This document shows positions 2,486 to 28,746 of a DNA stretch of 29,499 bases, piece by piece. Numbering within the stretch: the stretch's first letter is position 1; every line of letters starts with the position of its first letter. Under the pieces are notes generated by a model that had not been told where the DNA came from, made no database searches, and saw only the letters and a program-made list of their open reading frames with translations. The stretch spans positions 1 to 29,499 of the forward strand of contig CAZJHL010000001.1 in NCBI GenBank assembly GCA_964545865.1. Reading direction: 5' to 3'. The DNA comes from Candidatus Micrarchaeota archaeon (GTDB taxonomy: Archaea; Micrarchaeota; Micrarchaeia; CABMEP01). Position numbers and translations under genes: made by a program.

Positions 2486-2508
2486 TTCACCACTCTGACA
2501 TAGACTAT

Positions 2509-7192: not shown

Positions 7193-7247
7193 TTAATTCA
7201 CCTCTAATAATTATTATATTTGATTTTTGAATCTATGTAATCCACTA

Positions 7248-7892: not shown

Positions 7893-8064
7893 TTAATTCA
7901 CCTTTCTGTTGTTTCAGTTTTCTTAACAATATCATATCTCTTTTACAGCTATTCCATGTATAAAATAGTCAGTATGAAAAGTCCTCTCTTAATCAACGCC
8001 TAAGCAATAATAAGGGCATTAAAGCGCGAAAAGATGAGAATATAATATCTTATACACTCAATCA

Positions 8065-9941: not shown

Positions 9942-10676
9942 TCATCTTACTATAGTGTATTTAGATAGATAAAGATGGGCCTGGAGTACTACTAAGAATG
10001 GAAGAACAACCGCTGAGTTCATCAGTATTATGAACCCCTGCCTCATCATTGGATCTAAGAACATCATGAATGACAATGATGAAAATACGTAGATCATGAT
10101 GAATGCGATCAATAGCCACATTATGAAATTCAATGGCCTTCTGATTACGTGGTTGAAGCTGCTTACTAATGCTGGAACTGGCTTCTTCTCCTCTAGAACC
10201 ACTGCCGGCGCCATGTAGAAAAGACCTAATGAAACAATGAAATCCAACACGAGAGCTGGGAGCTCGTTCATGTTAATTGAAATTAAATAGCTGAGGAATA
10301 AGAATTCAAGCACCTTTATTCCAACGAATATTGCAAATACAGTTAAGGTGTATCTACTTAAATTCCTCATTGCCTCTGCAGACACCTTCGTTCTTGTTCT
10401 TGAAGCCTTGACTACTAGGGTGACTGCAACTGCAGCTAAAGATATAAACAAGAGTGAAATGCCTGCTGAAAGTATGATTGTTATGAAATCTGTCATTGTC
10501 ATTTCTGGAATGCTTCCAGACCTAAGGAAATAACCTCCTAATGCTGTGAAAACTGGCGCAGGCGAGAATGGAGGAAGCAATAAAACTAATGAAAGCAAGA
10601 ATGGGATTGAGAAAAACAATATCATTCCTATATTCTTTGTATAAGTTTCTATCGCATTTTTCAATACATCTATCAT
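9942..10676 (-). CDS. Polytopic membrane protein (about 6 TM), function unknown
   Basis: 244 aa with repeated hydrophobic segments and composition like the core genes. Confidence 0.7.
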   Translation of the reverse strand: MIDVLKNAIETYTKNIGMILFFSIPFLLSLVLLLPPFSPAPVFTALGGYFLRSGSIPEMTMTDFITIILSAGISLLFISLAAVAVTLVVKASRTRTKVSAEAMRNLSRYTLTVFAIFVGIKVLEFLFLSYLISINMNELPALVLDFIVSLGLFYMAPAVVLEEKKPVPALVSSFNHVIRRPLNFIMWLLIAFIMIYVFSSLSFMMFLDPMMRQGFIILMNSAVVLPFLVVLQAHLYLSKYTIVR

Positions 10677-10773
10677 AGTTCCACCCTTATTTTTCTAGAA
10701 ATAAATGTCCATCAAATCTTTTAAACATTCCTTTATACACTCCTTTAGCTTCCTATAGCTTCCTATGCCTTTC

Positions 10774-12276
10774 TTAGACCTTTCTTGCGCAGCCTGGAAG
10801 ATTGAATATCACAAAATAAGCAGAATTGGTTTGGAGCTTGCTTCCTCTTGTTGCTGCATCGTCATAAGATCTGATCTCAACCTTGTAGACGCCAGGAACA
10901 TAGTTGAATGGAGGGGATGAAGATATTGTTTCATTCAAATTTATGAATACCCCATCTGAATTATTCCACCAAACCATATTTCTTCCGTTCTCACTACTTG
11001 AGCCTGTTGAGCCAGAGATATCTGTTATATTGAATTTTAATCTCCAGATCTTTAAAGTTGTATTAAAATAGTAAATTGATATGTTTGTTTTAACTTCGCT
11101 TATCAAATAATTTACAGGGTCTTCCCTCCATATTCTCGCTGTAACGTTCATTTTTGATGGAATAAATGTAGTACCTTCATTAAAGAATCCCGATGGACTT
11201 GAGTATATCCTTACACTGATCGGATTGATATCACCTATCAAAACGCTTCCCACATTGACACTAGAAACTGAAGCGGAACCGCATGTTCCGACTACTGGGA
11301 CTGTCGAATTAAAGTCAAAGCTTATTGTTGGCGAGACGATAGTTCCTGGTAAGGCATTTGGTGCAGTTACTGTAACTGCAAAATCAACGCTTTGACCGGC
11401 GTTAATTGTTGAAGGCGAGAATGAATTTACAATAAAACCATTTGAAATATAAACGTTTGAAACTGTTGCATTCATATCTCCGCTATTGTTTAGCTTGAAT
11501 CTGAAGGTTACACTGCCCCCTGGAGTTACAGTATAATCGGATTGAACTGGGGTGAGGGTGAGATTTGGACCATTATAAACTGCCAATTTAATTTCTTTCC
11601 TAATTGGACTAAAGGTAGTTGATGTATAAGTTGAATCTTTCATGGGGCCGTCTGTTTCCCAAGTCCTAACAAATATTGAACAGTTTTGAAGAGTTGAAAT
11701 AAAAGATAAACTTTTACTTAAAGGTGGGGTTAATGAATAGGCTATTGAATTATTGAGATCGAATGAATTTAATACTGTCCCATTATCGATTATTGAAAAA
11801 TTACCATAGCAAAACATGCCGTGCTTAAATGATGCATCTCCCTTAGGCTGCCCAGGATTATAATACATACCGGTGCTGTTAAAAATTGCAAATGGATTCG
11901 GTCCGGTCCCATACTGATAATATTGGGTGTTAAAATAATATGAAACGTTGTTCAAGTAATCTGTTTTGTTAACAAGCAAAATTGAGAAAGGTTGGACGTC
12001 ATTTCCAACAGATGGACGTGGACCACAACCAAAAGTAGGGCAGGGAACCATAATATTTTGTAAATTTGAATAATTCCCATTAAAATAGGTTAATGCATCC
12101 AATGTTAGACCTGAACAAACAGCGGTTCCATCACTCAATTCTGTACCTAAAGTTGATATGTTCAATCCTAAACCTACAGATACATCTGAATCTATTCTAC
12201 TTTGCTGTATTCCTATAAATGTAATTGAGAAAGAAAAACTAAACATAATTAAAAGCAATAAGAATGTTTTTTTCAT
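10774..12276 (-). CDS. Secreted/surface glycoprotein with an Ig-like domain
   Basis: Signal peptide MKKTFLLLLIMFSFSFS, about 19 N-x-S/T sequons counted by hand, and an Ig-like segment VTPGGSVTFRFKLNNSG...INAGQSVDFAVTVTAP. Confidence 0.7.
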   Translation of the reverse strand: MKKTFLLLLIMFSFSFSITFIGIQQSRIDSDVSVGLGLNISTLGTELSDGTAVCSGLTLDALTYFNGNYSNLQNIMVPCPTFGCGPRPSVGNDVQPFSILLVNKTDYLNNVSYYFNTQYYQYGTGPNPFAIFNSTGMYYNPGQPKGDASFKHGMFCYGNFSIIDNGTVLNSFDLNNSIAYSLTPPLSKSLSFISTLQNCSIFVRTWETDGPMKDSTYTSTTFSPIRKEIKLAVYNGPNLTLTPVQSDYTVTPGGSVTFRFKLNNSGDMNATVSNVYISNGFIVNSFSPSTINAGQSVDFAVTVTAPNALPGTIVSPTISFDFNSTVPVVGTCGSASVSSVNVGSVLIGDINPISVRIYSSPSGFFNEGTTFIPSKMNVTARIWREDPVNYLISEVKTNISIYYFNTTLKIWRLKFNITDISGSTGSSSENGRNMVWWNNSDGVFINLNETISSSPPFNYVPGVYKVEIRSYDDAATRGSKLQTNSAYFVIFNLPGCARKV

Positions 12277-12317: not shown

Positions 12318-15300
12318 TTAAAATCTGATTGAAAGGTGTCCAGTTGGGATATTGTTCTTAAATATATTATTAAAGTCAACTGTGTCTCTTCCAGCTTTTG
12401 GCATTAAGCTCAATCCGACCCCTAATTCTGATTTCTTTCCTTGTATTCTTAATTCTGCACCGAAACCCTTGGGGGATAAAACATCTCCATTAAAGTATTC
12501 CCAAATAGACCAAGCGTAAGTATTTGTTTTTACATTAAGATCTAAGATGTTTCCTAGCTCTTTATTTACTGAAGTTCTAGGTGAACCATCTATAAAATCT
12601 ATATTAAACACAGTTCTCCAATTAATGCTTGCCGGTAATCCATTTATACCTAACCAACTAAATGGAATTGATAAAGGCATTGAAATGTTATTTGTCCTTG
12701 TTTGCATAAGCCATCTGTCATCATACTTAGTTACTGAAATTTCATCAAATAAATTTACTATTTCAACAAGTTTCTTTCCTACTATTTTATTTCCTTCCCA
12801 TTCATGTAAGACGTGTTCACCGAACTTTTGGAAAATCATTTTGTCTTCTTCAGACATTGATTTAATTGTCCAATCCTTATTGCCTCCAAAAAACTCAATC
12901 TTAACTTTTTCTTTTTCATCTACCCTTAAGTGATAACCGATTCCACCTAAAATTTTCTTCTCTTGTTTTGTTCCTTCATCGTATTTAAAGATCGGATTTC
13001 CGTAATTATCGTAGTCTTTGATGGACGCATAAACGTACTTTGTATCATATTGAATCCAACCTGTTTTTATATAAAGATCTTTCTTGATATAAATGTCCAG
13101 TGCGTTAACTGATCTTGTTTGATTCACTTTTAATTGCTTTGGAACGTTAACCAATGAAATTTCCGACCCGAATTGACTTGAAAGAAGATCGCTTGGCATT
13201 TGAGTTTTAAATTTGCCTTCTTTAATCGAATCTTTATTTTCCTCAAGCCATTTCTTTGTTGCATCTCCTCCGACTTTTGCTGGATCTAATTTGTAAGCCT
13301 GATTGATGGCATCGTATATTAATTTATTAACTTCAATTAAATTAAGCGGATTTTGATCGGCATTTTTTTGTAAATTCCATGCTTTATTAATTAAAGATGC
13401 AACACTTTCAGAGAATCTAGATTCGAATCCAGTCGGTACTCCTCCGATTCCACTTCCAGTATTGATACTGTTTTTGATGAAAAATGGGATTGAGATGGGT
13501 AACGATTCTGGAGCTTTGATTTTGATTTCCGCTGTTTCAAATTTAAATGATTTTAAGAATTTAAACGCATTTCCTTTTATTTTGAATATCCCTGAAAGGT
13601 TTAAATCTTCTTGAGAACTGATTTGAGGTAAATCAAATTCAAATCTATTGTTGTTATGAACATTCATTATTGAATTAAACGGCAGACTGTATTTATCATT
13701 TTCACTATAATTCTTGCTAGACTTCCATTTACCCGGTAACCCTGCGAACACCTTGGAACTGAATTTTATGGTTTCAGTATAAAATATTATTTGTGAATTA
13801 TCTTTCTTTCCAGGTTGGACGTCTAGTAATACGTTATCTGGCGGTAAAAACTTTACAATTGCCCTAACTTGATTTCCTTTTTCAATTAATTGAACATTAA
13901 ATCTAATCTGCTGAACTTGACATTCGCCAGAAATTGAATTTATGATTTTATTTGCCAAATCTCTTATCTCATTAGGTTTAGAAGGAAATACTGCCTTACC
14001 AGATAAATAATCATTCAATGGGGTTTGATCCTTTTTGAACTCTAAGCGTACCGCACCTAACTGTGGAACCCCTATGATTTTTTCTTTGCCGTCCTTCATT
14101 ATTTCAAATACCCCTTGAACTAATGAAGACATAAACAGATAATAGTCTGCCTTGTTATCTAAATACTTTTCATTATTCTTGCTTTTCAACATAATTTCAT
14201 TTGATTTGTCAATAATCATTGGTACCATATAATAGAACATCTCTGCAAGTGCTTTCGCTTGGTCTAGCTGGCGCGACATTGCGTCTTCTTTTTGAGAAGT
14301 TGACACTGCCTTTATTAATATATTATATGCTTCATCCATGAATACATACATCATTGCGGGCAATTGTCTAAGTACATCTGGATATTGAGAATATAATGGA
14401 GCGTAATTTACTATTTGTGTACGAATCAAATCGTGGATATATAATTTAATGGCTTCATATTTTATGCCGACTTCTTTATTGGCCATTGTATAGTAATTAA
14501 AACCTGCATCAAAACTACTTGAAATTCTTCCATCGTTAATGATTTTTAATATTTGATTATATACGTCTTTGCTGCTTTTAACACCTGGAACAACATTTCC
14601 ACTCAGGTAACCATCTGGATACAATGCTGCCTTATCGTTGTTTTGGTAAAGAAGAGAATCGCCATCCTTCCACAAGCCGATTTTAACTCTTTTTAACCCC
14701 TGGACCTGTAATTCGGAAAGCTTGCACTTGCCAGTTTGATCAAATAAGGCTTCATACAATTGGCCCGAAAGTAGTTTCTTAGAATCCAAATGGATCCATT
14801 TATCTGTAATAGAAAAACCGAATTCCTTTAAATTTATTGATTCTTTTTTGTCAACTAATTCTTGGATTATTTTAAGATCCTCTTCTCGGCCCTGTATCGT
14901 CATAATAGCTGAAATATTAAGTATAGTTAAATATTGTTGTTGCTCATGTCCGATCGGCCCATAGTTTAGGCTTGAACCTAAGATAGTAGCTAGTTTTTTC
15001 CTTTTTTCATCGGATTCTTCCATATATCTATTTATTTTTTCTACTATGTGTTGTAAATATTTTTTTTGCAGGAAATCTATTTTTACTTGTTCCTCTTTAG
15101 ATGTTTTCGATCGTGCGTAACCATAAAATCCTTTTTCTTTACCGAATGGAATTTCATTAATCACTTTAAATGTATTGCTTTCTTCTTTAGCTCTTAGATA
15201 TTCTAATTTTTTAGACTTAACTTCGCTATATGCCCTTGACCAAAATAAGTTTAGATTCTTTTGTTCTCCTTCTCGCAAAAAATCTTGTTTATTCATGATT

Positions 15301-15476
15301 TCACCTACTCTGTCACCCATCCTCTCATACCTAATTGTATTAAACGTTTGGTTTTTAAATTCTTTTGCTTCGGAAACTGGAATCCCATGGAATAACGGTT
15401 CGATTAATAAAAAAGAAGAGATAAGTAATCTGTTAAGATTTAATCTTCTTGAACGTGTGTTTTCCTTTAAGCGCAT
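12318..15476 (-). CDS. Giant hypothetical protein A (1052 aa): signal-like leader and beta-rich C-terminal domain ending in Phe
   Basis: Long ORF in an AT-rich region. Its N-terminal about 57 aa are homologous to the N-terminus of 19261..22506. Confidence 0.8.
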   Translation of the reverse strand: MRLKENTRSRRLNLNRLLISSFLLIEPLFHGIPVSEAKEFKNQTFNTIRYERMGDRVGEIMNKQDFLREGEQKNLNLFWSRAYSEVKSKKLEYLRAKEESNTFKVINEIPFGKEKGFYGYARSKTSKEEQVKIDFLQKKYLQHIVEKINRYMEESDEKRKKLATILGSSLNYGPIGHEQQQYLTILNISAIMTIQGREEDLKIIQELVDKKESINLKEFGFSITDKWIHLDSKKLLSGQLYEALFDQTGKCKLSELQVQGLKRVKIGLWKDGDSLLYQNNDKAALYPDGYLSGNVVPGVKSSKDVYNQILKIINDGRISSSFDAGFNYYTMANKEVGIKYEAIKLYIHDLIRTQIVNYAPLYSQYPDVLRQLPAMMYVFMDEAYNILIKAVSTSQKEDAMSRQLDQAKALAEMFYYMVPMIIDKSNEIMLKSKNNEKYLDNKADYYLFMSSLVQGVFEIMKDGKEKIIGVPQLGAVRLEFKKDQTPLNDYLSGKAVFPSKPNEIRDLANKIINSISGECQVQQIRFNVQLIEKGNQVRAIVKFLPPDNVLLDVQPGKKDNSQIIFYTETIKFSSKVFAGLPGKWKSSKNYSENDKYSLPFNSIMNVHNNNRFEFDLPQISSQEDLNLSGIFKIKGNAFKFLKSFKFETAEIKIKAPESLPISIPFFIKNSINTGSGIGGVPTGFESRFSESVASLINKAWNLQKNADQNPLNLIEVNKLIYDAINQAYKLDPAKVGGDATKKWLEENKDSIKEGKFKTQMPSDLLSSQFGSEISLVNVPKQLKVNQTRSVNALDIYIKKDLYIKTGWIQYDTKYVYASIKDYDNYGNPIFKYDEGTKQEKKILGGIGYHLRVDEKEKVKIEFFGGNKDWTIKSMSEEDKMIFQKFGEHVLHEWEGNKIVGKKLVEIVNLFDEISVTKYDDRWLMQTRTNNISMPLSIPFSWLGINGLPASINWRTVFNIDFIDGSPRTSVNKELGNILDLNVKTNTYAWSIWEYFNGDVLSPKGFGAELRIQGKKSELGVGLSLMPKAGRDTVDFNNIFKNNIPTGHLSIRF

Positions 15477-15533
15477 ATAAATCTAAGAATAAACCTATTT
15501 CGAATTAAAATACTTTTCGGTGTTGTTTTAGAG

Positions 15534-16730
15534 CTATTTCTCAGCAATGACGTTTAATCCATTGTCCTTAAGTGTCAAATGCAATTTATTTGTTTTGCTT
15601 ATTTCGTATATATACTCAACATCTTTGACTACCCTACTCACCAAAAAATCATAAAGTTTTTTGCTGTTTTTATCATTCAAATCTAAAGTGATGGGTTCAG
15701 AAAAATTAGATGACCAATCCTTACTATTAACTTGACTTATGAGATTTTTCACTTGACTACAATTATTAATCAAACTCTGAAGAAGTGTATTTTCTTTACC
15801 TGTTAATACTAAAGTTTTTGATGCTTCTTTCTGTTTGCCTTTTTCCTTATCTTGTTCCTTTTCTTTTTCTTCTTTCTTCTGTTCTTTTCCTGTCTGAATT
15901 GATTTCTCTTCTTTTTTCTTCTCTTTTGCAGATTCTTTTGATGCAACATACTTCTCAAACGTTTGCCTTATTTCATTTAAGGATTTTTCAAGTCTTTCTA
16001 TCTTCTCTTTATTTTCACCTTTTTCTTTTTCCAATTCCTTCTTCGTCTCTTGATGTAGTTTTATAATTTTTTGCATGGCATTAACATAACGTTCAATTTC
16101 ATCTGTATCTTTTTTACTTGAAGCATACTTTACCAAATCAGGTAAATCTTTCAGTGATTTGAAATCTTCTTTAAATCTAGTCCACCACGTCTCCTTTTTT
16201 GTTTTAGAATCTATTTTTTCTAATGTTTTTTCCATTTCGGAGATTGCATTTGATACTGCTTCAGTTGACTTTTGAATATCTGTAAGTGGAACGGATGAAA
16301 CTTGAATTTCTTGTGATTTTGTTTCTAAAGAAGGTGTTTGGACCTGTTCTTTCTTAATCAATTCTGGCATTTCATCCAGTTTTATCACTCCTTTTTCTTT
16401 ATCTATAATGGGAATAATTAAACCCATCTCTTGTGCTTCTCTTGTTACATTTAAACTGGCTAAATCATCTTCAAATAAGTCAACTTGCGTTTTCTTGAAT
16501 GCAGAAGTGAATATCAGATCGATTTTGATGTGGTCTTCTTCATAAATTTTAATATCTTTAAAAATCGGTTTTTCGCCTTTGTTAATACGAATTATGTCTG
16601 TATTGATTCTTTTAAGAATTATATCTCCTACATCTTGTGGAATCTTATCTTTGCTTATATATTTTTCAATCAATTCTTTTTTTTCATTTAAACTAACTAT
16701 CTCTTTTGGAATGATCTTTTGTCCTGCCAT
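15534..16730 (-). CDS. Hypothetical Lys/Glu-rich coiled-coil protein
   Basis: Long ORF. The likely start is MAGQK at 16730 after GGTGAAGGTGG. It has a low-complexity KE tract. Confidence 0.7.
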   Translation of the reverse strand: MAGQKIIPKEIVSLNEKKELIEKYISKDKIPQDVGDIILKRINTDIIRINKGEKPIFKDIKIYEEDHIKIDLIFTSAFKKTQVDLFEDDLASLNVTREAQEMGLIIPIIDKEKGVIKLDEMPELIKKEQVQTPSLETKSQEIQVSSVPLTDIQKSTEAVSNAISEMEKTLEKIDSKTKKETWWTRFKEDFKSLKDLPDLVKYASSKKDTDEIERYVNAMQKIIKLHQETKKELEKEKGENKEKIERLEKSLNEIRQTFEKYVASKESAKEKKKEEKSIQTGKEQKKEEKEKEQDKEKGKQKEASKTLVLTGKENTLLQSLINNCSQVKNLISQVNSKDWSSNFSEPITLDLNDKNSKKLYDFLVSRVVKDVEYIYEISKTNKLHLTLKDNGLNVIAEK

Positions 16731-16813
16731 CTTGCCACCTTCACCCATAATACCACGATTATATTACGTGTCCCATATTTAAATATATTTGTTTGGTACT
16801 AAAGGTCTATACA

Positions 16814-16827
16814 AAAAAATATATAAA
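16814..16827 (+). promoter_or_regulatory. BRE/TATA-like element AAAAAATATATAAA
   Basis: Lies about 22 nt upstream of the ATG at 16849. An identical 14-mer occurs at 19184-19197. Confidence 0.5.
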
Positions 16828-16848
16828 TAGTGGTGGAGAAATTAAGCT

Positions 16849-17790
16849 ATGCAAGCACAAATTAAAGATGAATACAGTATAATTAAAAAAAGATATATCG
16901 AGATCAATGAAAAATTCAGAAATCAGTCAAAATTGACTTCTACTCAAAAAGAAGAGTTAATAAAAGAAATCTCTGCCTTAAATTCTCAACTTAAAAAGAA
17001 TCCCGAAATAGGTAAGAAACTTGAAGAAGAGATGAAAATTATTCTTTATAACTCAGATGGCACGTATAATGGAAACCGAATCAAGATAATGGCGTATTGG
17101 ATAAGAAGAGAGGAAATGAACAAGGAAATTTTAAAACTTAGAGACGATAATTTGGCAGTAATAGAATTGATTAATGAACCTAAAATGAGAAAACGACTTA
17201 AGAAAACAACCGAATCCATTGAAAACCTTAGAAACGCGGAAATTGAGGAAAATTCAAGCAATACGATGTTAAGAAAGTTTTATCTGGACATAATAGAGAT
17301 ATATGAACAAAGCATAGAAATCGCAAAAGAAAGAAATATTGAATATAAAGGAATGCTCGTTGGAATGGAAGATGCGGAAAAATTCAATAATTTCATGGTT
17401 GGACAGATAGACCTCTCCTTAGCTGGTTTGATGAGTAAAGAGTTTGCGAAAACTATGTATCCTTATATTAGTCTATTTAAAAATAAAAAAGAATATAGCG
17501 AAGAAGAAATTAAATTAATGAATAATTTAAAAAGAGAAATACAAGCAAAAATAGATCAGCTTACAAAGAAACTTGAAAATGTTAAAGAAGTAAAAGAAAG
17601 AAGTCTTACTTTTTTCAAGAAAGTCGCAAGCGGAGATAGAAGCGCAAGTTTAGAAATGGTTCAAGAAGCGGCGGAAAAATGGAAGAAATTTGTTCCGAAT
17701 GCAAAAAAAGTTGAAGAACAAACAAAGATAGAGATAGAAGGTCTCATTCTTGCTTACTCTGCTTTAGATAGGCTACAAAAAACAGTTTAA
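16849..17790 (+). CDS. Hypothetical alpha-helical/coiled-coil protein
   Basis: 313-aa ORF with heptad-like K/E/I/L composition. Its stop abuts the pop5 stop with no gap. Confidence 0.7.
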   Translation: MQAQIKDEYSIIKKRYIEINEKFRNQSKLTSTQKEELIKEISALNSQLKKNPEIGKKLEEEMKIILYNSDGTYNGNRIKIMAYWIRREEMNKEILKLRDDNLAVIELINEPKMRKRLKKTTESIENLRNAEIEENSSNTMLRKFYLDIIEIYEQSIEIAKERNIEYKGMLVGMEDAEKFNNFMVGQIDLSLAGLMSKEFAKTMYPYISLFKNKKEYSEEEIKLMNNLKREIQAKIDQLTKKLENVKEVKERSLTFFKKVASGDRSASLEMVQEAAEKWKKFVPNAKKVEEQTKIEIEGLILAYSALDRLQKTV

Positions 17791-18635: not shown

Positions 18636-19118
18636 TTATCTTAAGCCTCTCATCTTCCTTCCTTGAGAAGTCAATCCTCTGAATACTCTTCCTTTCTGTA
18701 GGTTAAGGCCCGTCTTTTCAGGATTTGCGAGTATTACTTCATAGAACTTGTATTGGCCATCATCCCCAACAAAGTATGAGTTAAGGACTTCGAAGTTTCT
18801 GTATTTCTTTCCTGCTCTCTCCTCTGCAATTAGTTGGAGTGATTTGTGTCTTGCATAGAATTGACCTGTCTTTGAAGGCTTTCTTCCTCTCATATGGATG
18901 TATCTCTTTCTCTTTCCTCTCTCTACTCTCACTCTTGCTACCACAAATCCATCCTTTGCTTTATAGCCTAATGTCCTCGCTCTTGCAAGATTAGTAGGCT
19001 TTTCCACTCTAACTACTGGAGATTCCTTTCTCCATTGAGCTATTCTTGCCCTATATGCTGGGGACCTTTCCTTGTATTCTTTTCGGAATGTTTCCTGTAT
19101 CTGCTTATAAAGAGACAT
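18636..19118 (-). CDS. rpl15e: 50S ribosomal protein L15e (eL15)
   Basis: WRKESPVVRVEKPTNLARARTLGYKAKDG, AEERAG, LNSYFVGDDGQYKFYEVIL and FRGLTS. Confidence 0.96.
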   Translation of the reverse strand: MSLYKQIQETFRKEYKERSPAYRARIAQWRKESPVVRVEKPTNLARARTLGYKAKDGFVVARVRVERGKRKRYIHMRGRKPSKTGQFYARHKSLQLIAEERAGKKYRNFEVLNSYFVGDDGQYKFYEVILANPEKTGLNLQKGRVFRGLTSQGRKMRGLR

Positions 19119-19183
19119 AGTATCACTTTAACTAATTTAATAAGTCAAAACTTAAGTTAAGACTGTAAGATATATTAACTTAG

Positions 19184-19197
19184 AAAAAATATATAAA
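19184..19197 (+). promoter_or_regulatory. BRE/TATA-like element AAAAAATATATAAA
   Basis: In the divergent rpl15e / giant protein B intergenic region and identical to 16814-16827. A second TATA-like element, GAAAATATATTAA, follows near 19217-19229. Confidence 0.45.
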
Positions 19198-19260
19198 GCT
19201 TAATCCCTAGATGGCGGAAAATATATTAACCCCTTTTGTGTCTTATTTTTGCTGATTTTT

Positions 19261-22200
19261 ATGCATATGAAGGAGTATTCGCAGTTCTATAAAAGTAATG
19301 AAAAGATCAAAAGGCTTGTTAGAATCACTTTTGCATCCTTTCTTCTAGTCGAACCCCTAATCCTTCCATTGAATGCAAAAGAGGCAGATACAAAAGCATT
19401 TAAAAATCAAATGAATAATAGTATAAAGGTGGAAAGGATGGGTGATAAAGTGGCAACCGCACAAAAACAAAGAAGTCAGTTAGTAGAGGAGGCTAAACGT
19501 GACATATATGGATTAATAAACTCAACTGATAAAGACATGCTCTTAAGAACTTATAATTCAATTAAAGAAAAAAGAGAAAAAAACAAAGAATACAATGATG
19601 CTTACAAAGAAGCATGGATAGAAATCTCAAAAAATAAAAAATATGTAGATACGTTCAATGAAAAATGGCAGAAAGCAGAAAAGGCGTATAAAACACAAAG
19701 TGCTGCAGCGCAAAATCTTATTGAAAGCTTAAGAAAAGTCTTTCCTAATGCACAAACTATAGAGGTTACTATGAGTGGAACGGGTATAACCACTGCGAAA
19801 GAAAAGCAGAGTGCGTTTGATGCTTATTTGAAAGTAACAGATAAAAACGGAAATGCGATTTGGGGTGGGATTAAATTTAAACGTGATAATAATTATGGGA
19901 TTTCTTATGAATATCTTGGCAAAACAGAAGTGACAAAAGAAGGAATAAATGAAATGGAAATTTGGATAAAAGATGGGATTGCAAAATTAAATAAATGGGA
20001 AGACGCGAAAACAAGGTTTGCGCAATTCAGAGGATATTGGCTTGAACCTAATGAAAAAGCATATGTTTTCGTAAGTGGAGAAACGGGCACTTACTCATAT
20101 ACAAAATTCAAAAAGGAATCTGATAATAGCATTACGTTGATAATATCTGGTTCAGCTTCGACTTCAAATATTACATATGAAAAAATGAAAAGGGAGGAGA
20201 CATTTTACAAGTATAGTGGAAAGATCGAATCTACGATACCAGTTATAAATAAAATAAGCGAGATTAATGGAACACTCACTCAAAATCTTGAAATTCTTGG
20301 AGAACGAGAATTAATGCTGACTATTACTCCGAAAGGTGAAAAAACTAGAAATGAATTATACAAGGGAGGCAAAGTTAAAATTGGTGATACATATTTCTCA
20401 GTATCTGCGCCGTTTGTAGAAAAAAACCCAGATATGACTAATCCCCGAATGTACGTATTTGTTTATTATTTAGATGCAAACGGGAATCAAGTTAAATCTG
20501 AAAAAATTGAGGTTGAAAAAGAAATATCTTTATCTTTCTTAGATACATATTTTAATCTAAAAGTTTCACCTTCAAAGAAATCAATAGACAATGCAATCTC
20601 TTCATTATCTGATCAAACATATTATATAATTATAAATGAGACAAAAATACCCATTAATCCTTCAATTAACAAAGCAATTAATTACCAAGATAATAAAAGC
20701 AACTATACAGTTGAATTTAGTAGTGTAAACTTTAGCGGACCAATAATAAATGGAGAAATACAAAATATGACTGGAGATCTCAATATCACTGACAATGCAA
20801 CTGGCATCACGCAAAAACTGAAATTAAATATTGGTGTGCAAACTAATGTAAAATTTGGAAATAATATTCTAGACGTTAAAATAGAACAACCTGAATATAT
20901 ATCTATACTTAACAATGTGCGATATGAAAATATGAGAATTAATTTTAGGACAAACAAAATCGAGAATGACAAAAAAGAAATAGCATACCTTAACAATGCT
21001 TCTTGGGACGGCATAGTTAAATTTAAAGAAAAAGAGTTCAATCTCCAAGCTAAGGCGATTATGCTCTCAGAAGGTCCATTTGCAGAAAAGGAAGAAAAAC
21101 TAAAAGAAAAAGTGCCAAAGAGTAGAAAACAAGAGGAGCTCTTAAATGAAGAAACGGCACAGACGGGCGCAATAGGAACTTTGACTGGCTTATCTGTTCA
21201 AAACTTGATTGGTGTTTCATTCAACGCTACAAATTCAATAGGAAATGGTATTTGGGGTGTCTTATATGACCCAAGACCTTTGATAGAAAAAGGATATAGT
21301 GACAATGGTGATGCACTTAAACAAATAACTGCGAAATTTAAAACAGCTGGATGGAAGAGCCTCGGATTGACTGGTTTAACTGCTTATGAGCAAGAACAGC
21401 TATCAAAAGGAAATATAGGTGTAGAACAAATAAAAGATGTTACAGGTTATGGTCTTTGGTTATTGTTTGACACCTTTGCATTGCATGGTGAAGGAAGAAT
21501 AATTGACGAAAAGATCAAAAAGGAAATAATAAATATGATTGAGACCAAAGGTGACAGAACTGAATTTCTTTTCAGCACTTTCGATCCTAATAGAGAGGGA
21601 TTTCAGATACTTACAATTAAATACAACCAAGAAAGGAAGAAAGGGGAAGAGAATAAAAACTATATTGGCATACAAAAAACAGACTATACTACTTCGACCC
21701 AATATAAAATAAACGATATGAATAGATTAATTAATTCATTGTATGGTAAACTAGATTTAAATAGTATCAAGAGGAGTCAAGATGAAATTATGGTTGGAAA
21801 TCCAACAAGTATAAAGCAACTTACAGAGTTTAGTTATAAGAGATGGAACCCTACAATCGGAATTGGAACCCCGTTTGGTGCTTATGAAGTTGGACTGCAT
21901 TATGCGAATGGTACTGAAATAAAAACTATTGAAAGTTCCGAACTGACAACTAATAGAACTGAGATAAAGGAAATAGGCCAGAATTTAATTTTTAAAGGAA
22001 TTCCGTTATTTGGAATGGAGATTAACGGCACGTACGAAAAAAGAAGAACGGATAGCTTAACTAAAAATAACAATATACTAAATTTATTTTCAACTAACAA
22101 CTATGAAATTATTGAAATTCAGCCATTAGCTAAACTTGGTTTAGATGCATATGCGTATCTTACAGTTCGACAGAGATTGGATTCTTCTGAGATTAACTCT

Positions 22201-22506
22201 TTGGAAAAAGGAGATGTAAAAAGAACAAAAACGATTTCCAAGGAGATAAGACCTGGTTTTAGAAATAAATGGATGGAATTAAATATATTCTACATATTGA
22301 GCGATCAAGAAACATTCAGCAAAACAATTTCTAATTTAGAAAAGATGAAAAACGAGCAGAAACAATGGGGGGTTAACGCGTTTGGAAAAGCCAGCGAAAA
22401 TTTAACGTTCAACCTTTCTTATTACAGGACATGGAATTCACTCGTAGGAACTACATGGGGCATAAATGCTAGAATTGGGTTGAAATTTGACTTAAGTACA
22501 AAATAA
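19261..22506 (+). CDS. Giant hypothetical protein B (about 1081 aa): signal-like leader and beta-rich C-terminal domain
   Basis: Long ORF. Start moved to the ATG at 19261 because MHMKE aligns with MRLKE of protein A. Confidence 0.8.
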   Translation: MHMKEYSQFYKSNEKIKRLVRITFASFLLVEPLILPLNAKEADTKAFKNQMNNSIKVERMGDKVATAQKQRSQLVEEAKRDIYGLINSTDKDMLLRTYNSIKEKREKNKEYNDAYKEAWIEISKNKKYVDTFNEKWQKAEKAYKTQSAAAQNLIESLRKVFPNAQTIEVTMSGTGITTAKEKQSAFDAYLKVTDKNGNAIWGGIKFKRDNNYGISYEYLGKTEVTKEGINEMEIWIKDGIAKLNKWEDAKTRFAQFRGYWLEPNEKAYVFVSGETGTYSYTKFKKESDNSITLIISGSASTSNITYEKMKREETFYKYSGKIESTIPVINKISEINGTLTQNLEILGERELMLTITPKGEKTRNELYKGGKVKIGDTYFSVSAPFVEKNPDMTNPRMYVFVYYLDANGNQVKSEKIEVEKEISLSFLDTYFNLKVSPSKKSIDNAISSLSDQTYYIIINETKIPINPSINKAINYQDNKSNYTVEFSSVNFSGPIINGEIQNMTGDLNITDNATGITQKLKLNIGVQTNVKFGNNILDVKIEQPEYISILNNVRYENMRINFRTNKIENDKKEIAYLNNASWDGIVKFKEKEFNLQAKAIMLSEGPFAEKEEKLKEKVPKSRKQEELLNEETAQTGAIGTLTGLSVQNLIGVSFNATNSIGNGIWGVLYDPRPLIEKGYSDNGDALKQITAKFKTAGWKSLGLTGLTAYEQEQLSKGNIGVEQIKDVTGYGLWLLFDTFALHGEGRIIDEKIKKEIINMIETKGDRTEFLFSTFDPNREGFQILTIKYNQERKKGEENKNYIGIQKTDYTTSTQYKINDMNRLINSLYGKLDLNSIKRSQDEIMVGNPTSIKQLTEFSYKRWNPTIGIGTPFGAYEVGLHYANGTEIKTIESSELTTNRTEIKEIGQNLIFKGIPLFGMEINGTYEKRRTDSLTKNNNILNLFSTNNYEIIEIQPLAKLGLDAYAYLTVRQRLDSSEINSLEKGDVKRTKTISKEIRPGFRNKWMELNIFYILSDQETFSKTISNLEKMKNEQKQWGVNAFGKASENLTFNLSYYRTWNSLVGTTWGINARIGLKFDLSTK

Positions 22507-22561
22507 TCTGAAAGATGAAAAAAGTTATGTTTGATTATTTTTTTTAGTCAAGATATTAGTA

Positions 22562-24229
22562 TTATGCTCTGAGTAATCCATTTGATATTAATTTTTGTAT
22601 AATTTCTTGTTCAGATTTACCTTTCAATTCATCGATGTGTTTTAAAATGGAATTTCCAACTACCTCTAATGAAGCCTCTATCATACCCTCATTATTAACA
22701 ACCTTAAAATAAGTTTCTAAACCTTCTGATTTTATTAATATTCTATTTGGAAGTAATAACTTTACTAATTGTTCTAATTCAGCTACTTGCGAGTTTATCT
22801 CTCTGTTTAAAAGTTTGAAATTTCTTGGTTCCATAGAAGTTTTTTTCTGTTCTCTGTAATTATTGAGAGCACTAATAATATTCTGCGCTGTGATTTTGGT
22901 TTCCTCGGTATATGTAAGTTTCTTTTGCTCTTGTTGGATTGGCTTAACTTCCATCTTTTTATTTTCAATTTGGTTGCTTTCTTTTGACTCCTTTTCTTCT
23001 GATACTTCTTCTATTTTTACCTTCCATTTGGTTGTTCCTTCTATATGTTTTGGATAATCTTGGGTAAATCTATATTTTTTGCCTGTATTTTCAGTGATAT
23101 TATTTATTGTAGATAGAAATTCATCTTTTATCTTATCAAAGGCAGCATAGTTGTATTCTACTTCTTGCCCTTCGACCAATACCTCGATTTTATATTTTGA
23201 CTTTGGATTGTTCTTATTTATGGGTTGGTTGAAGTTTACAATATTATTTCCTGTACCTAATTCTACTTTATTCTTGTAAACAAATCCAAGAGGTCTTTCT
23301 TTATTTTCATTTTCAATATTTTTTTGCTCTAGCTTAACTGCATACCATATTTTTCCATCAGATTTATCTATTCTTTTTGGATATCCATTTGAATATGTAA
23401 ATTGTATATTATAATTTTTGACTGCGTCGTTTATTTTATCCAATAACTCAGCACTTCGTTTCTTATTCGAATTCTTGACGTTCTGGCTCAAATCTGCTTG
23501 AAATTCTACCTCTACTAGTTCATTCACTAATTTTTGTATTTTGTAAGACGACTCGTCCTTTTCATCTGCTTTTTTGTTGAAATTTATACTGTCAACCATA
23601 ATCTGTTGCTTGATAATAAATTCTGATACGTTTGTTTCCTTTTTTTGCTCATCGGCTTTTAATTTTTGTTTTTCACCAATTTCTTCTCTTTGATTATTTT
23701 TATCATCCGTATACTTCTCCTTTAAATCTGATATTTGTTCACCTACATTATCTATTTTTTTCTTTATTGCCTTTAAATTTATGTCGAATACCTGCAAAGA
23801 CGATTTAGGTTTTACATCGCTACTTGGAATTTCAACTTCTTTCCCTATATAAACATAGTCAAAAAAAGCTTTAATGTCATTTTTAGCTTCAAATTGATTC
23901 TTCCAAACTTTAACATACTCATGATCTTCAGGTAGGGCTTCGGCCTTAAATTCGTAACCTAATCTTTCAAAAACAGACTCAAGAATTTTTATTTCTTCTT
24001 CATTAAGAACTAGGATCATGCCTTCCACATTGATATCTGGTTTCTTTTGTTTTTCCAGTATTTCTTCTATTTTATTCTTTGTATCTTTTACATCCAATAT
24101 TTTTGTTTTATTTGGAATAAGATCTATTTGATCTAAGAATTTCTTCACGACCTCTTGTTCTCTTTTTGAAAATTTAGTCTTTTCCTCTTTTTTAATCGAA
24201 ATTTTGGCAACTTGAAACAATATAAACAT
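22562..24229 (-). CDS. Hypothetical charged protein with an internal domain duplication
   Basis: Long ORF. The likely start is the ATG at 24229 after GGGGTGAAGGG. Two related segments YKI..LV...EVE...DKI.D...FT...YPK.I...W..VK.E. Confidence 0.72.
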   Translation of the reverse strand: MFILFQVAKISIKKEEKTKFSKREQEVVKKFLDQIDLIPNKTKILDVKDTKNKIEEILEKQKKPDINVEGMILVLNEEEIKILESVFERLGYEFKAEALPEDHEYVKVWKNQFEAKNDIKAFFDYVYIGKEVEIPSSDVKPKSSLQVFDINLKAIKKKIDNVGEQISDLKEKYTDDKNNQREEIGEKQKLKADEQKKETNVSEFIIKQQIMVDSINFNKKADEKDESSYKIQKLVNELVEVEFQADLSQNVKNSNKKRSAELLDKINDAVKNYNIQFTYSNGYPKRIDKSDGKIWYAVKLEQKNIENENKERPLGFVYKNKVELGTGNNIVNFNQPINKNNPKSKYKIEVLVEGQEVEYNYAAFDKIKDEFLSTINNITENTGKKYRFTQDYPKHIEGTTKWKVKIEEVSEEKESKESNQIENKKMEVKPIQQEQKKLTYTEETKITAQNIISALNNYREQKKTSMEPRNFKLLNREINSQVAELEQLVKLLLPNRILIKSEGLETYFKVVNNEGMIEASLEVVGNSILKHIDELKGKSEQEIIQKLISNGLLRA

Positions 24230-24249
24230 CCCTTCACCCCATATAATCC

Positions 24250-25608
24250 TCATTTAATCTCTATATTAATGCTAGCTGGAGTCAATTGTGATAGTTTAAT
24301 TGCCTGATCAATAACACCCACTTTTTCTTCCATTATTTGTAACCCTTTACCATCAAGATATCTTTCTATTTCACTCTTTATTTTATTCTTTGAATTTGCA
24401 TATAAATTATACCGATCTGGATAAATTACTATCTGAACTACATCATCTTTTTCCACAATATAATAACTCTTACTGTCAATAAATATCTTTCTTCCAGCAG
24501 TATCCTTGTTTATGAATCTTGATTCTCCGAACTCTGGAGGCTTCCATATTATCTGTGGTATATCTTGAAGATTCCAGTCAAAATTTATTGAATCGAATGA
24601 GACATAGTAGCCGTTCTCGTCAAGCCAGACCTCGTTTCCATACTGGTCCTTTGAGAGGATTGCCCATTCGCCGTTTCTCATCCTTAGCTTTGTTCCAATC
24701 TCGATTTTTTCAAGCTCTAATTCTCCGGTCTTTAGTAATAGACCTATATCTTTCTTCCTAATCTCTGCATCCGTGCCTGTGATGTATCCACCTTTTCTCT
24801 TTAATGCGTAGAATGACCCTTCTCCTACGAAAAGACAGCCTGCTGTAGTTTGATTGTAAAGGTCGTCCAGTATTCCTGCCTCGCTCCCGAGAGGCGCTTC
24901 CCCTATGAAGCCAGGGTATATGTAGGAACGGAAATGCAGTTTTTCAGTGCCTTTAAATGGGATTTTAGCTGAACCCATCAGATTGAAAATGCTCCAAGGA
25001 TGCGGAGAAGTTGAAGATGAAAAGGAATTTGGATATACTTGTCTCAGTTCTGAAAAGCCTTTCCTTCCGGGAGGTATGACCCAGCCTCCTTTTTCTAATT
25101 TTCCTAATTCAAATGTACCAGTCCTTAATGGAATAGAAATAGAAGCTCCCGAAAGGATAGTCGCGTCCTCTACTTCGCCATTGTTTACTTTTGCCAAAAT
25201 CCCAATATTCGGATTCGCATAAAGCTCATATCCTTTTCCAGTCAGTTTTTTATCCTTTATTGCATCGTCCACGAAACTTTGAAGTATATCTTTAGGTGGT
25301 GAAAAGTAGTTTATCTCTCTCGCATAGCTCTTCCCCACATAAAGCATTGGTTTTTTGTTCTCTTCTCCTATCCTGAAAACAATCTGATAGCCGTTATTTC
25401 TGATGAAATCGTAGATTTCATTTATGAGTTTCTTCTTAAAATCATCGTTTGTTATATTTATCGGTATTTTGAAAAATGAACCCTTAGCCTCCTTCAGGTC
25501 TTCGATAGAAAATTTCATCACTTCTTTCTCTGCTATTTCTTTTATTTTTTCTAGTATTTCATCGATTTCCTTTTTTTCGTTCTGAACTTCTTTTAATATA
25601 GGTGGCAT
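24250..25608 (-). CDS. Hypothetical protein, possible L,D-transpeptidase-like (YkuD/DUF5675/Tlde1-type) catalytic domain
   Basis: 452-aa ORF with the motifs IPLRTGTF, LHF and TTAGCLFVG in order. The family call is tentative. Confidence 0.45.
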   Translation of the reverse strand: MPPILKEVQNEKKEIDEILEKIKEIAEKEVMKFSIEDLKEAKGSFFKIPINITNDDFKKKLINEIYDFIRNNGYQIVFRIGEENKKPMLYVGKSYAREINYFSPPKDILQSFVDDAIKDKKLTGKGYELYANPNIGILAKVNNGEVEDATILSGASISIPLRTGTFELGKLEKGGWVIPPGRKGFSELRQVYPNSFSSSTSPHPWSIFNLMGSAKIPFKGTEKLHFRSYIYPGFIGEAPLGSEAGILDDLYNQTTAGCLFVGEGSFYALKRKGGYITGTDAEIRKKDIGLLLKTGELELEKIEIGTKLRMRNGEWAILSKDQYGNEVWLDENGYYVSFDSINFDWNLQDIPQIIWKPPEFGESRFINKDTAGRKIFIDSKSYYIVEKDDVVQIVIYPDRYNLYANSKNKIKSEIERYLDGKGLQIMEEKVGVIDQAIKLSQLTPASINIEIK

Positions 25609-25668: not shown

Positions 25669-26970
25669 CTATTCTTTTTTATATGTTATGTATCTTTTTT
25701 CTCCTTCCTTTTCCTTGCATACTGCTAGATACGCCTCATCAAGTGGGAAAGATGTGTAATAAGCATAATTTAATATCTCTGGCTTTTGGTTGTAATACTT
25801 ATATTTGCATCCTGTTCTTTCAAAGGAGGCTTGCGTGCCTTCTTCTATGAATATAGGAACGTGCAAGTTTCTTCCTATTCCGAAATTAATGTTTACCTCG
25901 TCCTCAACTTTTCCAGTTCCTGCAACCTCTACTGGAACCCATTCGCCATCGTAGAATTCAACCCACATATGCCTAACGAATCTGGTGTCGTTTTCCTTAG
26001 CTAGAAAGCCTTCAACATATCTTGAAGGAATTCCTGCGGACCTGAGAAGGGAGATGTAAAGGTAGCTAAGCTCATCACAATCTCCCTTTCTTGATTCCAT
26101 CATCTCAGATGGAGACTGGACGTACTCGTCCACCCCTCCCTGGTTGAAATAGGAAGTATTGGTTTTAAGCCAGATAAAGATCTCCTTTGCTATATCCCAT
26201 ACGTTGCTACTGTTTGCTCTTTTCTTTGCTTCTTCAGCCACTATTTTTATCCTTTCATTGTTTGGATCTATAATCTTCCTTACCTTTCCTGTTGCAGGGT
26301 CGGTAATTGTTCTCTCCTGAAGATAGCCTTGCATTGAAGACAATTCCTCGATCGTGGATTCCTTCCTTTCGAAGATCCTTATTTCATTTGTTCCATTAAG
26401 TGTGACTAGAAAATGAAATCTGATTGAGTTGTATCTCTGGTTAAGATTGTCAATTGAAAGCCTTACCATTTTGTTCTGGCCTATGTAATAGGTATTCTTA
26501 TTTGTTCCATCAAAGGAAACATTTAACATGGAGCCTTCAGGATATGGCAGGTCGCAAGTCAGATTCGTGCGATACAGGGTTCCGTTGTATCCGTACCTAA
26601 CCAGGTAATTTCTTTTCAAAGGAACCTCGTAATACAAGCAGTCTTTGACAAGAGTAAAGTTCCAATCATAGCTTCCAGGATAAAAAACGAATGAAAAGTT
26701 ATAGTCCTTATAACCTTCCTTTGTTATCCTTATCTTGTAGCTTCCTTGTGTGAGGTTTGAAAACATATACATTCCATTCTCATCGCTGTATGTGAAGTAT
26801 GTCTTATTAGAGATCATCTCTATCCTTGCGTTTGGAATCGGATCTCCATTTGCTGATTTTATTGTGCCGTTTAGCCCAAAAGTGGTCGGCTCTAAGAACA
26901 TCTCTTCTACTCCAATGCATCCAAATATGAAGAAAGATGAAATCATAATTAAAAAGGCTAGCAATCTCAT
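25669..26970 (-). CDS. Predicted lipoprotein: carboxypeptidase-regulatory-like Ig domain plus transglutaminase-like (Cys-His) domain
   Basis: Lipobox-like FIFGC; NGTIKSANGDPIPNARI...YTYSDENGMYMFSNLTQGSYKIRITKEGY; KGDCDE...LLRSAGIPSRYVEG...HMWVEFY...WVPVEV. Start at the ATG at 26970. Confidence 0.85.
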   Translation of the reverse strand: MRLLAFLIMISSFFIFGCIGVEEMFLEPTTFGLNGTIKSANGDPIPNARIEMISNKTYFTYSDENGMYMFSNLTQGSYKIRITKEGYKDYNFSFVFYPGSYDWNFTLVKDCLYYEVPLKRNYLVRYGYNGTLYRTNLTCDLPYPEGSMLNVSFDGTNKNTYYIGQNKMVRLSIDNLNQRYNSIRFHFLVTLNGTNEIRIFERKESTIEELSSMQGYLQERTITDPATGKVRKIIDPNNERIKIVAEEAKKRANSSNVWDIAKEIFIWLKTNTSYFNQGGVDEYVQSPSEMMESRKGDCDELSYLYISLLRSAGIPSRYVEGFLAKENDTRFVRHMWVEFYDGEWVPVEVAGTGKVEDEVNINFGIGRNLHVPIFIEEGTQASFERTGCKYKYYNQKPEILNYAYYTSFPLDEAYLAVCKEKEGEKRYITYKKE

Positions 26971-26992
26971 ACCTAATAATTTATTGATATAC

Positions 26993-27000
26993 TTTATAAA
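26993..27000. promoter_or_regulatory. Palindromic TATA box TTTATAAA, probably bidirectional
   Basis: The tRNA-Thr 5' end is 26 nt beyond one edge of the box and the ATG at 26970 on the minus strand is 23 nt beyond the other. Confidence 0.55.
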
Positions 27001-27025
27001 CATAATCTGAAAATATAATATTAAA

Positions 27026-27173
27026 GCCCGAGTAGCTCAGTGGTAGAGCGCCTGAGATACTTCTTAAAGAAAGAAGTTTCATCAATAAATTTCTTTGATG
27101 AAACTTTCTTTGTAAGGAAGTTTCGGCGAATCTCGTAAACAGGAGGTCAAGGGTTCAAATCCCTTCTCGGGCT
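27026..27173 (+). tRNA. tRNA-Thr(CGU), intron-containing
   Basis: Exon 1 is 27026-27054 and exon 2 is 27131-27173. The spliced cloverleaf has acceptor GCCCGAG/CTCGGGC, discriminator U, D arm GCTC/GAGC, anticodon stem CCTGT/ACAGG with loop CT-CGT-AA, and T arm AAGGG-TTCAAAT-CCCTT. CCA is not encoded. Confidence 0.95.
27055..27130 (+). other. 76-nt tRNA intron at non-canonical position 30/31 with a full bulge-helix-bulge motif
   Basis: Central helix CGCC/GGCG, bulges TG|A and AA|T, outer helix GAG/CTC. The intron folds into a long hairpin with a perfect 12-bp core AAGTTTCATCAA/TTGATGAAACTT. Confidence 0.92.
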
Positions 27174-28648: not shown

Positions 28649-28720
28649 GGGCCTGTAGCTCAATGGTAGAGCGCATCCATGGCATGGATGAGGCTGCGCG
28701 TTCGAGTCGCGCCAGGTCCA
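28649..28720 (+). tRNA. tRNA-Ala(GGC)
   Basis: Acceptor GGGCCTG/CAGGTCC with the G3-U70 alanine determinant and discriminator A. Anticodon stem CATCC/GGATG with loop AT-GGC-AT. T arm GCGCG-TTCGAGT-CGCGC. No intron and no encoded CCA. Confidence 0.96.
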
Positions 28721-28746
28721 TAGATAGATTAAATGGAGGCGACTGG

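Follow-up and report, generated by a model that had tools for sequence, protein, structure and literature searches.

Two orphan giant proteins of a Micrarchaeota archaeon share a predicted export leader and end in candidate barrel-like beta-meanders

The locus and its two giant genes

The window considered here, a stretch of 29,499 nt on contig CAZJHL010000001.1 from a Micrarchaeota (DPANN) archaeon, carries two giant genes, A and B, whose products are the subject of this account. The gene for protein B lies at 19261..22506 on the forward strand and encodes 1081 aa plus stop; the gene for protein A lies at 12318..15476 on the reverse strand and encodes 1052 aa plus stop (homologues P0012-P0016). 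The modular plan common to both is well supported: after an export leader comes a variable body, and the chain finishes in a C-terminal beta-meander whose terminal strand ends in Phe. A and B would represent Sec-exported orphan envelope proteins of about 1,050-1,080 aa built on this one plan. The open reading frame of B extends over 19249-22506, and its start is most likely the ATG at 19261 and not the TTG at 19249, because this Met is also the first residue of an orthologue (P0008) and of the protein from a strain that is nearly identical (L009). B contains 0 Cys residues.

The archaeal gene content of the window includes an exosome operon (Rrp4, Rrp41 and Rrp42) together with genes for proteasome alpha, SBDS and ribosomal protein L15e, and the records that hold homologues of A or B are named Candidatus Micrarchaeum, Micrarchaeota or Micrarchaeia; both lines bear out the DPANN origin, here Micrarchaeota, suspected in an earlier note made from the DNA sequence. 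An assignment to the double-membraned Altiarchaeota, prompted by the low G+C content and the hydrogenase genes, was discarded in view of these record names. Relatives of either protein are rare. Four relatives of B were found in a set of 5.8 billion proteins, and a profile search of 1.84 billion representatives returned nine matches, seven of them full-length (down to about 20% identity) and two confined to the leader. A has four relatives besides itself, and a scan of GTDB genomes added one extra locus, from a Ca. Micrarchaeum sp. Searches of Pfam, NCBIfam and PDB sequences with A, B and their relatives, both singly and as profiles, gave no match even at E <= 10. B is a genuine orphan gene, and its relatives, about 10 among 1.8-5.8 billion proteins, are all tied to Micrarchaeota-type loci beside L15e. 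The giant genes and their K/E-rich neighbours (12318-17000 and 19000-24300) have a G+C content of 0.29-0.34 and form the most AT-rich part of the window, compared with 0.41-0.46 for the exosome and proteasome genes.

A leader common to otherwise unrelated proteins

The signal-peptide part of the B leader (19261..19389, forward strand) comprises a K/R-rich n-region, then ITFASFLLVEPLILPL, a short h-region in which one Glu is invariant, and, at about LNA/KEA, an A-x-A-like site. It is followed by the conserved N-terminal motif of mature B, DTKAFKNQMNNSIKVERMGDKVATAQKQ (19390..19473, forward strand), which is common to giant proteins that are otherwise unrelated. The leader of A (15297..15476, reverse strand) likewise consists of a signal peptide (about aa 1-37) and the motif KEFKNQTFNTIRYERMGDRV. 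BLASTP of A against B yields an alignment over about 58 residues with an E-value of 2e-9, restricted to the leader, and the shared leader described in the earlier note is thereby confirmed. After the basic n-region the consensus reads [SA][FL]LL[VIF]E[PS]L for the h-region (Glu invariant), then an A-x-A-like site, then K.FK[NK]Q..N[ST]IKV[ED][RG]MGD[KR]. In both proteins the leader is the sole hydrophobic segment (Kyte-Doolittle scale, 19-residue window; B maximum 1.84), and the N-terminal Sec signal characteristic of autotransporters is thus present in each, with a single hydrophobic segment, a basic n-region and an A-x-A-like site. P0009, a divergent homologue, carries a canonical signal peptide, ...AASAWA, at the same position. 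The A and B leaders have 27 identical residues, 15 of which are specified by different codons, indicating that selection works on the peptide.

The same leader occurs in P0011 (1111 aa), which otherwise has no similarity to A or B; hhalign of the A family against P0011 gives a match confined to the leader, at a probability of 95%. Within the ERZ795125 genomes (L001 and L002) the leader of A is almost the same as that of B (...SSFLLVE[PS]LL.P.AF.G..GKVFKKQTSNSIKVDGMG), and each resembles the other more than it does its own orthologue in the window. Such a pattern suggests gene conversion or co-evolution with a common partner. The leader, a signal peptide plus a mature N-terminal motif of 25-30 aa, would direct export, presumably with cleavage of the signal peptide, and its mature part probably docks the N-terminus to a common partner. 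Bacterial autotransporters and two-partner-secretion proteins of very large size have a comparable conserved leader in their extended signal peptide region (ESPR), which proteins that are otherwise unrelated share. In A and B, however, conservation reaches some 30 residues beyond the predicted cleavage site into the mature protein, an invariant Glu lies within the h-region, and the sequence is unrelated to ESPR.

A leader profile search of the 5.8-billion-protein set returned only a partial protein, P0010, and missed known leader bearers. A degenerate DNA pattern for the motif N[ST]IKV..MGDK identified one contig, from a near-identical strain of the window organism, and no additional leader families. 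Public gene calls often begin at the Met of 'MGD' (P0001, P0002, P0005, P0007, P0013 and P0015), losing the in-frame leader upstream, and automated annotation consequently misses the export signal. Such in-frame leaders, upstream of mis-called starts, occur at 5335-5493 (reverse strand) in locus L001 and at about 7800-8000 (forward strand) in L012.

The body and C-terminal domain of protein B

Between the leader and the C-terminal domain, the middle region of B (19474..21198, forward strand) appears to be a beta-rich, fast-diverging ectodomain; it includes a K/E-rich helix at about nt 21124-21186 that leads, in the model, into the C-terminal domain. The latter (21199..22488, forward strand) is predicted by AlphaFold2 to form an antiparallel beta-meander of about 430 aa and about 20-22 strands, and is a candidate barrel. 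The model, of residues 620-1080 from a 9-sequence alignment, has a mean predicted local distance difference test score (pLDDT) of 54 and a predicted template-modelling score (pTM) of 0.40. Its secondary structure is a near-continuous series of nearest-neighbour antiparallel hairpins, with about 22 strands of 12-18 residues. The best-predicted part (21271..21708, forward strand) holds seven strands of 14-18 residues at pLDDT 63-86; residues 670-815 are the most confident of the domain (63-86, and 70-86 over 670-790), residues 815-955 fall below 50, and values of 54-68 are reached in the final eight strands.

The earlier note had located a barrel-like domain of about 220 aa at 21841..22503 (forward strand). 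The peptides it quoted are all found in place in the translation of 19249-22506. The domain is larger than it supposed: nt 21841 corresponds to about residue 860 of B, downstream of the confident strands, and the modelled domain, about 430 aa long, begins at about residue 646 (nt 21199). The interval first proposed comprises a low-confidence stretch to about nt 22128 and then the last eight strands or so. Seven of the nine segments read as strands do lie within predicted strands, whereas QNLIFKG-IPL is helical or unstructured at pLDDT below 50. Named segments falling in modelled strands are PTIGIG, GAYEVG, FGMEIN/YEKRR, YAYLTVRQR, WMELNIFY, QWGVNAFGKA, LTFNLSYYRTW and WGINARIGLK.

Three properties of the domain are consistent with a hairpin architecture. 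The last five strands (residues 983-1074) show a two-residue periodicity, with one face 56-83% hydrophobic and the other 11-43%. Across the 9-sequence alignment, 21 of 31 family indels coincide with a predicted turn or adjoin one, where 14 would be expected (P = 0.008). Strand connections 3, 5 and 7 have conservation of 0.37-0.42 and positive hydrophobicity, whereas connections 4, 6 and 8 have conservation of 0.21-0.26 and are mostly polar, so that the alternation of short turns and long loops noticed earlier stands in the confident part. The B domain would thus have one conserved, hydrophobic rim of short turns and an opposite rim that is variable and polar.

The helical bundle and beta domain of protein A

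Directly ahead of the beta domain of A lies a helical bundle (13158..13427, reverse strand; A 684-773), predicted by AlphaFold2 at pLDDT 89-97 and preceded by an invariant Gly-rich motif, GIGGVPTGF. The predicted C-terminal beta-meander (12321..13151, reverse strand) spans about 277 aa and 12-14 strands and ends in ...NNIPTGHLSIRF at the extreme C-terminus. The model, of residues 665-1052 from 5 sequences, has a mean pLDDT of 72 and a pTM of 0.55, with the first three strands at pLDDT 64-87. Of 14 strands, 7 show a clear two-residue periodicity, and some of the strands are 22-25 residues long.

The length of these hairpins bears on the idea that A and B are released pore-formers, whose C-terminal hairpins would oligomerise and insert into the membrane of a wall-less host, opening a conduit. 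Hairpins of 22-25 residues exceed ordinary outer membrane protein (OMP) strands and are closer in length to the stem hairpins of oligomeric pores. Neither protein has an anchor besides its signal peptide, and the fast divergence of the middle regions and the outright replacement at the A position (see below) are as expected of host-interaction proteins. Known beta pore-forming toxins, however, supply one or two hairpins per subunit, a contribution far exceeded by the 12-22 strands per chain predicted here, and no pore family is matched by sequence or fold, with aerolysin, haemolysin and MACPF/CDC proteins absent from the Pfam matches and from the top 50 Foldseek matches of the A and B models. 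Pore-formers of this kind are therefore considered improbable.

The C-termini of A and B are unrelated in sequence by both BLASTP and hhalign, as had been stated before. Common ancestry of the two beta domains was rejected at any detectable level, the B C-terminal profile giving an hhalign probability below 1% against both the A family and P0011. According to the models, two sequence-unrelated C-termini independently give the same fold class. The proposal that A and B have the same architecture holds as regards the antiparallel beta domains of both models; as regards barrel closure it is conjectural (B pTM 0.40; B template-modelling (TM) scores <= 0.29).

The beta-meanders might also be largely artefacts of the very few sequences aligned, the true fold being something else. 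The five models of each protein vary in pLDDT (B from 54 down to 30, A from 72 down to 48), B 815-955 remains below pLDDT 50, and RIIDEKIKKEIINMIE, a helix-like heptad by eye, is modelled as a strand. This explanation has to accommodate pLDDT values of 70-86 over B 670-790 and of 64-87 over the first three strands of A, the agreement of indel placement and rim alternation with the hairpin register, and the emergence of the same fold class from two unrelated sequences, and it is very improbable.

A recurrent C-terminal strand

Bacterial OMPs carry, as their hallmark C-terminal signal, a last strand that is amphipathic and closes on an aromatic residue, and strands of this type terminate both the A and the B families. 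In B the terminal amphipathic strand, GTTWGINARIGLKF, followed by the tail DLSTK, occupies 22447..22503 (forward strand) as judged from alignments with relatives. Four of the five members of the A family end exactly in ...NNIP[TS]GHLSI[RK]F-stop, and the fifth (P0016) has ...FVTYKF and then GGKKKEKIVGPSK, the Phe being invariant in all five. Members of the B family end in ...ARIGLKF-DLSTK, ...LRLQF-LGSKEKKK, ...FTKQF-GGSKTEKK, ...LRWAF-AKL or ...LGLKVRY-stop, in each case with F, Y or L at or close to the terminus and 0-10 mostly G/K residues after it; the Phe of B itself stands 5 residues from the end. The third leader-bearing family also closes on such a strand, P0011 ending in ...YGFSIKIGLK, and so does a fourth giant, a positional analogue of 1257 aa in L012, which ends in ...AFQYKF-DGG and a K-rich tail. 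At the sequence level, the terminal strand motif recurs across families without detectable homology.

Fold comparison and the nature of the beta domains

When the B model was compared with the PDB using Foldseek, 48 of the top 50 matches were outer membrane barrels (E 4e-4 to 3e-2). Its neighbours include Hbp, EspP, BrkA, LptD, maltoporin, CymA, OmpG and TonB-dependent receptors, and the autotransporter beta-domains 3aeh, 2qom and 3qq2 are the top matches. TM-scores are 0.09-0.29 (0.09-0.24 for the Hbp, EspP and BrkA barrels), with root-mean-square deviations (rmsd) of 16-31 Å. For the A model all of the top 50 matches were outer membrane barrels, OMPLA being the best (E 9.5e-4, target-normalised TM-score (TMt) 0.27-0.29), with a TMt of 0.38 for NanC. 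Structure prediction with Foldseek, the check that the earlier note had recommended, thus placed outer membrane barrels nearest to both proteins, at TM-scores of at most 0.29-0.38.

These similarities, together with the rims and the terminal strand, allow the following proposal. On this favoured reading, the C-terminal up-and-down antiparallel beta-meander would be an anchoring or assembly module that forms, by itself or in an oligomer, a closed OMP-like barrel. A hydrophobic layer external to the cytoplasmic membrane would hold the barrel, and this could be either an outer layer of the Micrarchaeon or the membrane of the host cell. From the models, barrel closure and membrane insertion are inferred features of this scheme, and a membrane barrel with conduit function is plausible. 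The beta domain as an OMP-like membrane barrel, insertion into the host membrane included, is a tentative proposal, quite possible but not to be counted on. A role in host attachment, contact or nutrient conduction would follow from it by inference.

A number of observations weigh against the membrane barrel. The models are of low confidence (mean pLDDT 54 for B and 72 for A, from only 9 and 5 sequences, respectively). The Foldseek E-values are marginal, with TM-scores of 0.1-0.38 and rmsd of 13-30 Å over the two proteins, and the best target-normalised scores, 0.25 for B and 0.38 for A against NanC, stay below the value of about 0.5 associated with superposition on a solved barrel, although the low-confidence models limit the weight of these figures. 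As far as the models go, the similarity is one of local meander and not of a closed barrel. OMP, autotransporter (PF03797) and pore-forming families are absent from A, B and 14 family members in Pfam at E <= 10, and a sequence-profile search of the PDB with A and B gave no match to an autotransporter or OMP. In a hydrophobic-moment scan, residues 250-600 of B score higher in beta periodicity than the C-terminus, and in the absence of a C-terminal peak periodicity alone is no evidence. Many modelled strands of A and B run to 16-25 residues, of which up to 50% are charged, and several core strands (GLWLLF, FLFSTF, FQILTI) are hydrophobic on both faces, unlike those of a water-filled porin. Archaea are not known to have an Omp85/BAM-type insertase (beta-barrel assembly machinery, BAM). 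Finally, the cultivated Ca. Micrarchaeum harzensis has a surface layer (S-layer) on a single membrane (bioRxiv 10.1101/2021.04.28.441871).

Many of the same observations favour the principal alternative, in which the C-terminal domains are soluble or lattice-forming beta-sheet modules (a sandwich, open sheet or ring) that anchor to an S-layer or pseudo-periplasm or build an envelope complex. It would be in keeping with TM-scores to real barrels of at most 0.29-0.38, with predicted strands that are very long, highly charged and in some cases hydrophobic on both faces, and with a beta periodicity that is equal or stronger in the middle region of B. A MORN-repeat beta-meander tops the viral fold library, so Foldseek matches meanders generally. 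The single-membrane S-layer of Micrarchaeota also fits, as do the barrel proteins of the Thermotoga toga, which form sheaths with little lipid (PMC10160955). However, every strand is predicted to pair in a hairpin with its nearest neighbour, and the models have no crossovers of the sandwich type; a conserved hydrophobic rim and a terminal Phe strand, as found here, typify membrane barrels; and the S-layer domains PF05123 and TIGR01564/TIGR01567 are absent from A and B in Pfam and NCBIfam. A soluble or lattice-forming domain is therefore doubtful, though to be taken seriously. A phage or viral origin was also considered and rejected, the viral fold library giving no match below E 1e-3.

A minor alternative, like the released pore-former, arises from the second-ranked Foldseek match of B, lipovitellin (1lsh; E 6e-4, probability 1.00 and the highest among the matches, query-normalised TM-score (TMq) 0.21, rmsd 16.5 Å). 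The beta domain might be a large open or curved sheet enclosing a hydrophobic groove or cavity, and might bind or transfer lipids (in a lipovitellin- or LptD/AsmA-like manner) taken up from the host. LptD likewise ranks high among the matches, both faces of several core strands are hydrophobic, and Micrarchaeum relies on host lipids, the lipid synthesis of Ca. Micrarchaeum harzensis being incomplete and its lipids the same as those of the host (PMC8975820). The lipovitellin match is nevertheless single and marginal, with its rmsd of 16.5 Å, no such match was obtained for the A model, and Pfam lipid-transfer families gave no match; the chance that the domain is a lipid-binding sheet is slim.

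Relation to known envelope systems

The order of parts in A and B resembles that of classical autotransporters (Hbp, EspP, BrkA): a Sec signal with a conserved extension, a variable exposed region, a helix and a beta domain ending in an aromatic residue. The beta part of A (about 277 aa and 12-14 strands after helices) also has the size of a 12-stranded translocator. The differences are considerable. A and B match autotransporters neither as sequence families nor in global superposition (TM 0.09-0.24), the beta domain of B, at about 430 aa and about 20 strands, is far above a 12-strand translocator, the archaeon has no known outer membrane or BAM, and a beta-helical passenger is not indicated. 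The autotransporter-like or pore-forming architecture proposed earlier is consequently retained in part: leader, large body and beta end are present in both proteins, without a closed barrel model or membership of a known family. With bacterial outer membrane barrels more generally A and B have in common long hairpins, a terminal Phe strand, Gly- and aromatic-rich strands and conserved short turns as opposed to variable long loops. Their strands are longer and more charged, sequence homology is lacking, and the similarity is local only (TM at most 0.38).

As far as is known, archaea have yielded no characterised integral beta-barrel membrane protein. On the boldest reading, A, B, P0011 and the 1257-aa protein of L012 would be the first archaeal integral transmembrane beta-barrels, autotransporter-like, arisen independently of bacterial OMPs, each exported through its dedicated leader and situated in an outer layer or the host membrane; put so strongly, the claim is unlikely. 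If it were true, a host-membrane barrel could act as a tether or conduit, and placement in a genuine outer layer would reopen the question of the 'two membranes' of ARMAN cells, whose first descriptions gave them both an inner and an outer membrane (reviewed in PMC4243693). Whether the envelope of Micrarchaeota/ARMAN comprises two membranes or a single membrane under an S-layer has been a matter of dispute. The beta-barrel trimers of the Thermotoga toga, which form a mostly proteinaceous outer sheath, are a precedent for barrel proteins building such a layer (PMC10160955), and a toga-like layer could reconcile the ARMAN 'second membrane' with the S-layer described later. The toga is bacterial and unrelated in sequence, and trimers or arrays are not evidenced for A and B. 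A 21-nm barrel-shaped envelope complex has been reported, unidentified, in the Micrarchaeon ARM-1 (PMC11329633).

SLP_Mh, an S-layer protein (Micr_00292; bioRxiv 10.1101/2021.04.28.441871), comes from the same phylum and resembles A and B in its size of about 100 kDa, a debated N-terminal signal or anchor, few sulfur residues and a presumed surface location. It carries PF05123 and TIGR01564/01567, whereas A and B match neither, and an S-layer identity of the SLP_Mh type was rejected on the absence of these defining domains. Even if their C-terminal domains are soluble, A and B would constitute a new Micrarchaeota surface-protein family with a conserved export and docking leader. As possible contact-mediating proteins of symbionts that depend on their hosts for lipids and metabolites, they offer expressible candidates for envelope or host-contact machinery, within a small, clade-restricted set defined by a private leader, fast-diverging bodies and OMP-like C-terminal domains.

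Genomic context and divergence of the bodies

The order of genes around A and B is kept in at least three genera (L001, L002 and L004 among the loci). It runs from proteasome alpha through a 244-aa membrane protein, a CARDB-like secreted protein of about 500 aa, giant A and a K/E-rich coiled-coil protein to a 313-aa protein, Rpp14, a 147-aa protein and L15e, beyond which lie giant B, two more proteins and a transglutaminase-like protein. B is kept full-length beside L15e/Rpp14 across at least four lineages, distant members included. In GCA_038885315.1 (L004/L006) the neighbouring genes are 72-92% identical to those of the window, whereas the B orthologue is 23% identical over its middle, and the A position is occupied by P0011, which has only the leader in common with A. 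By sequence comparison the body of A in that genome is replaced or has diverged beyond recognition. Taken across these loci, A and B are core-locus genes of the chromosome, with bodies that diverge or are exchanged much more quickly than the genes around them, a turnover typical of exposed interaction proteins. The large, fast-evolving middle is probably the displayed, interaction-bearing part of each protein.

Two genes are co-oriented downstream of A on the reverse strand, one for a secreted CARDB/DUF1573-like protein of 500 aa (10774-12276; weak Pfam matches) and the other for a polytopic membrane protein of 244 aa (9942-10676; no match found). These neighbours (9942..12276) have identities of 44-92% and a conserved order in L001, L002 and L004, and their products are possible partners of A. 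The K/E-rich coiled-coil proteins flanking A and B (15534-16748 and 22562-24253, both reverse strand) are themselves poorly conserved and show only partial matches of 28-42%, compared with 47-92% for other neighbours. The syntenic block ends with a secreted protein (25669-27003, reverse strand) that combines an N-terminal CarboxypepD_reg domain with a transglutaminase core and has 79% identity in L006/L007. Between the coiled-coil and 313-aa genes, L001 (6849-7397) and L002 (6829-7377) carry an archaemetzincin-like (Peptidase_M54) gene that is absent from this position in the window. In distant lineages, toxin-antitoxin-type pairs (RHH/PIN, HicA/HicB and nucleotidyltransferase/HEPN) adjoin the B-family gene, at 6952-7595 and 12744-13204 in L010 and at 11846-12801 in L012.

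Other features of the window

A tRNA of 148 nt (27026-27173, forward strand) scores 54 bits in Rfam and was missed by ARAGORN; the length implies that it contains an intron, a common archaeal feature. A second tRNA, tRNA-Ala(GGC) at 28649-28720 (forward strand), overlaps the 5' end of a K/E-rich open reading frame of 202 aa (28663-29271), which consequently starts further downstream or is spurious at its 5' end. At the opposite end of the window lie genes with similarity to the large subunit (PF00374) and small subunit (Oxidored_q6) of [NiFe]-hydrogenase (671-2560, reverse strand), and an Oxidored_q6 gene is also found at the corresponding end of L004.

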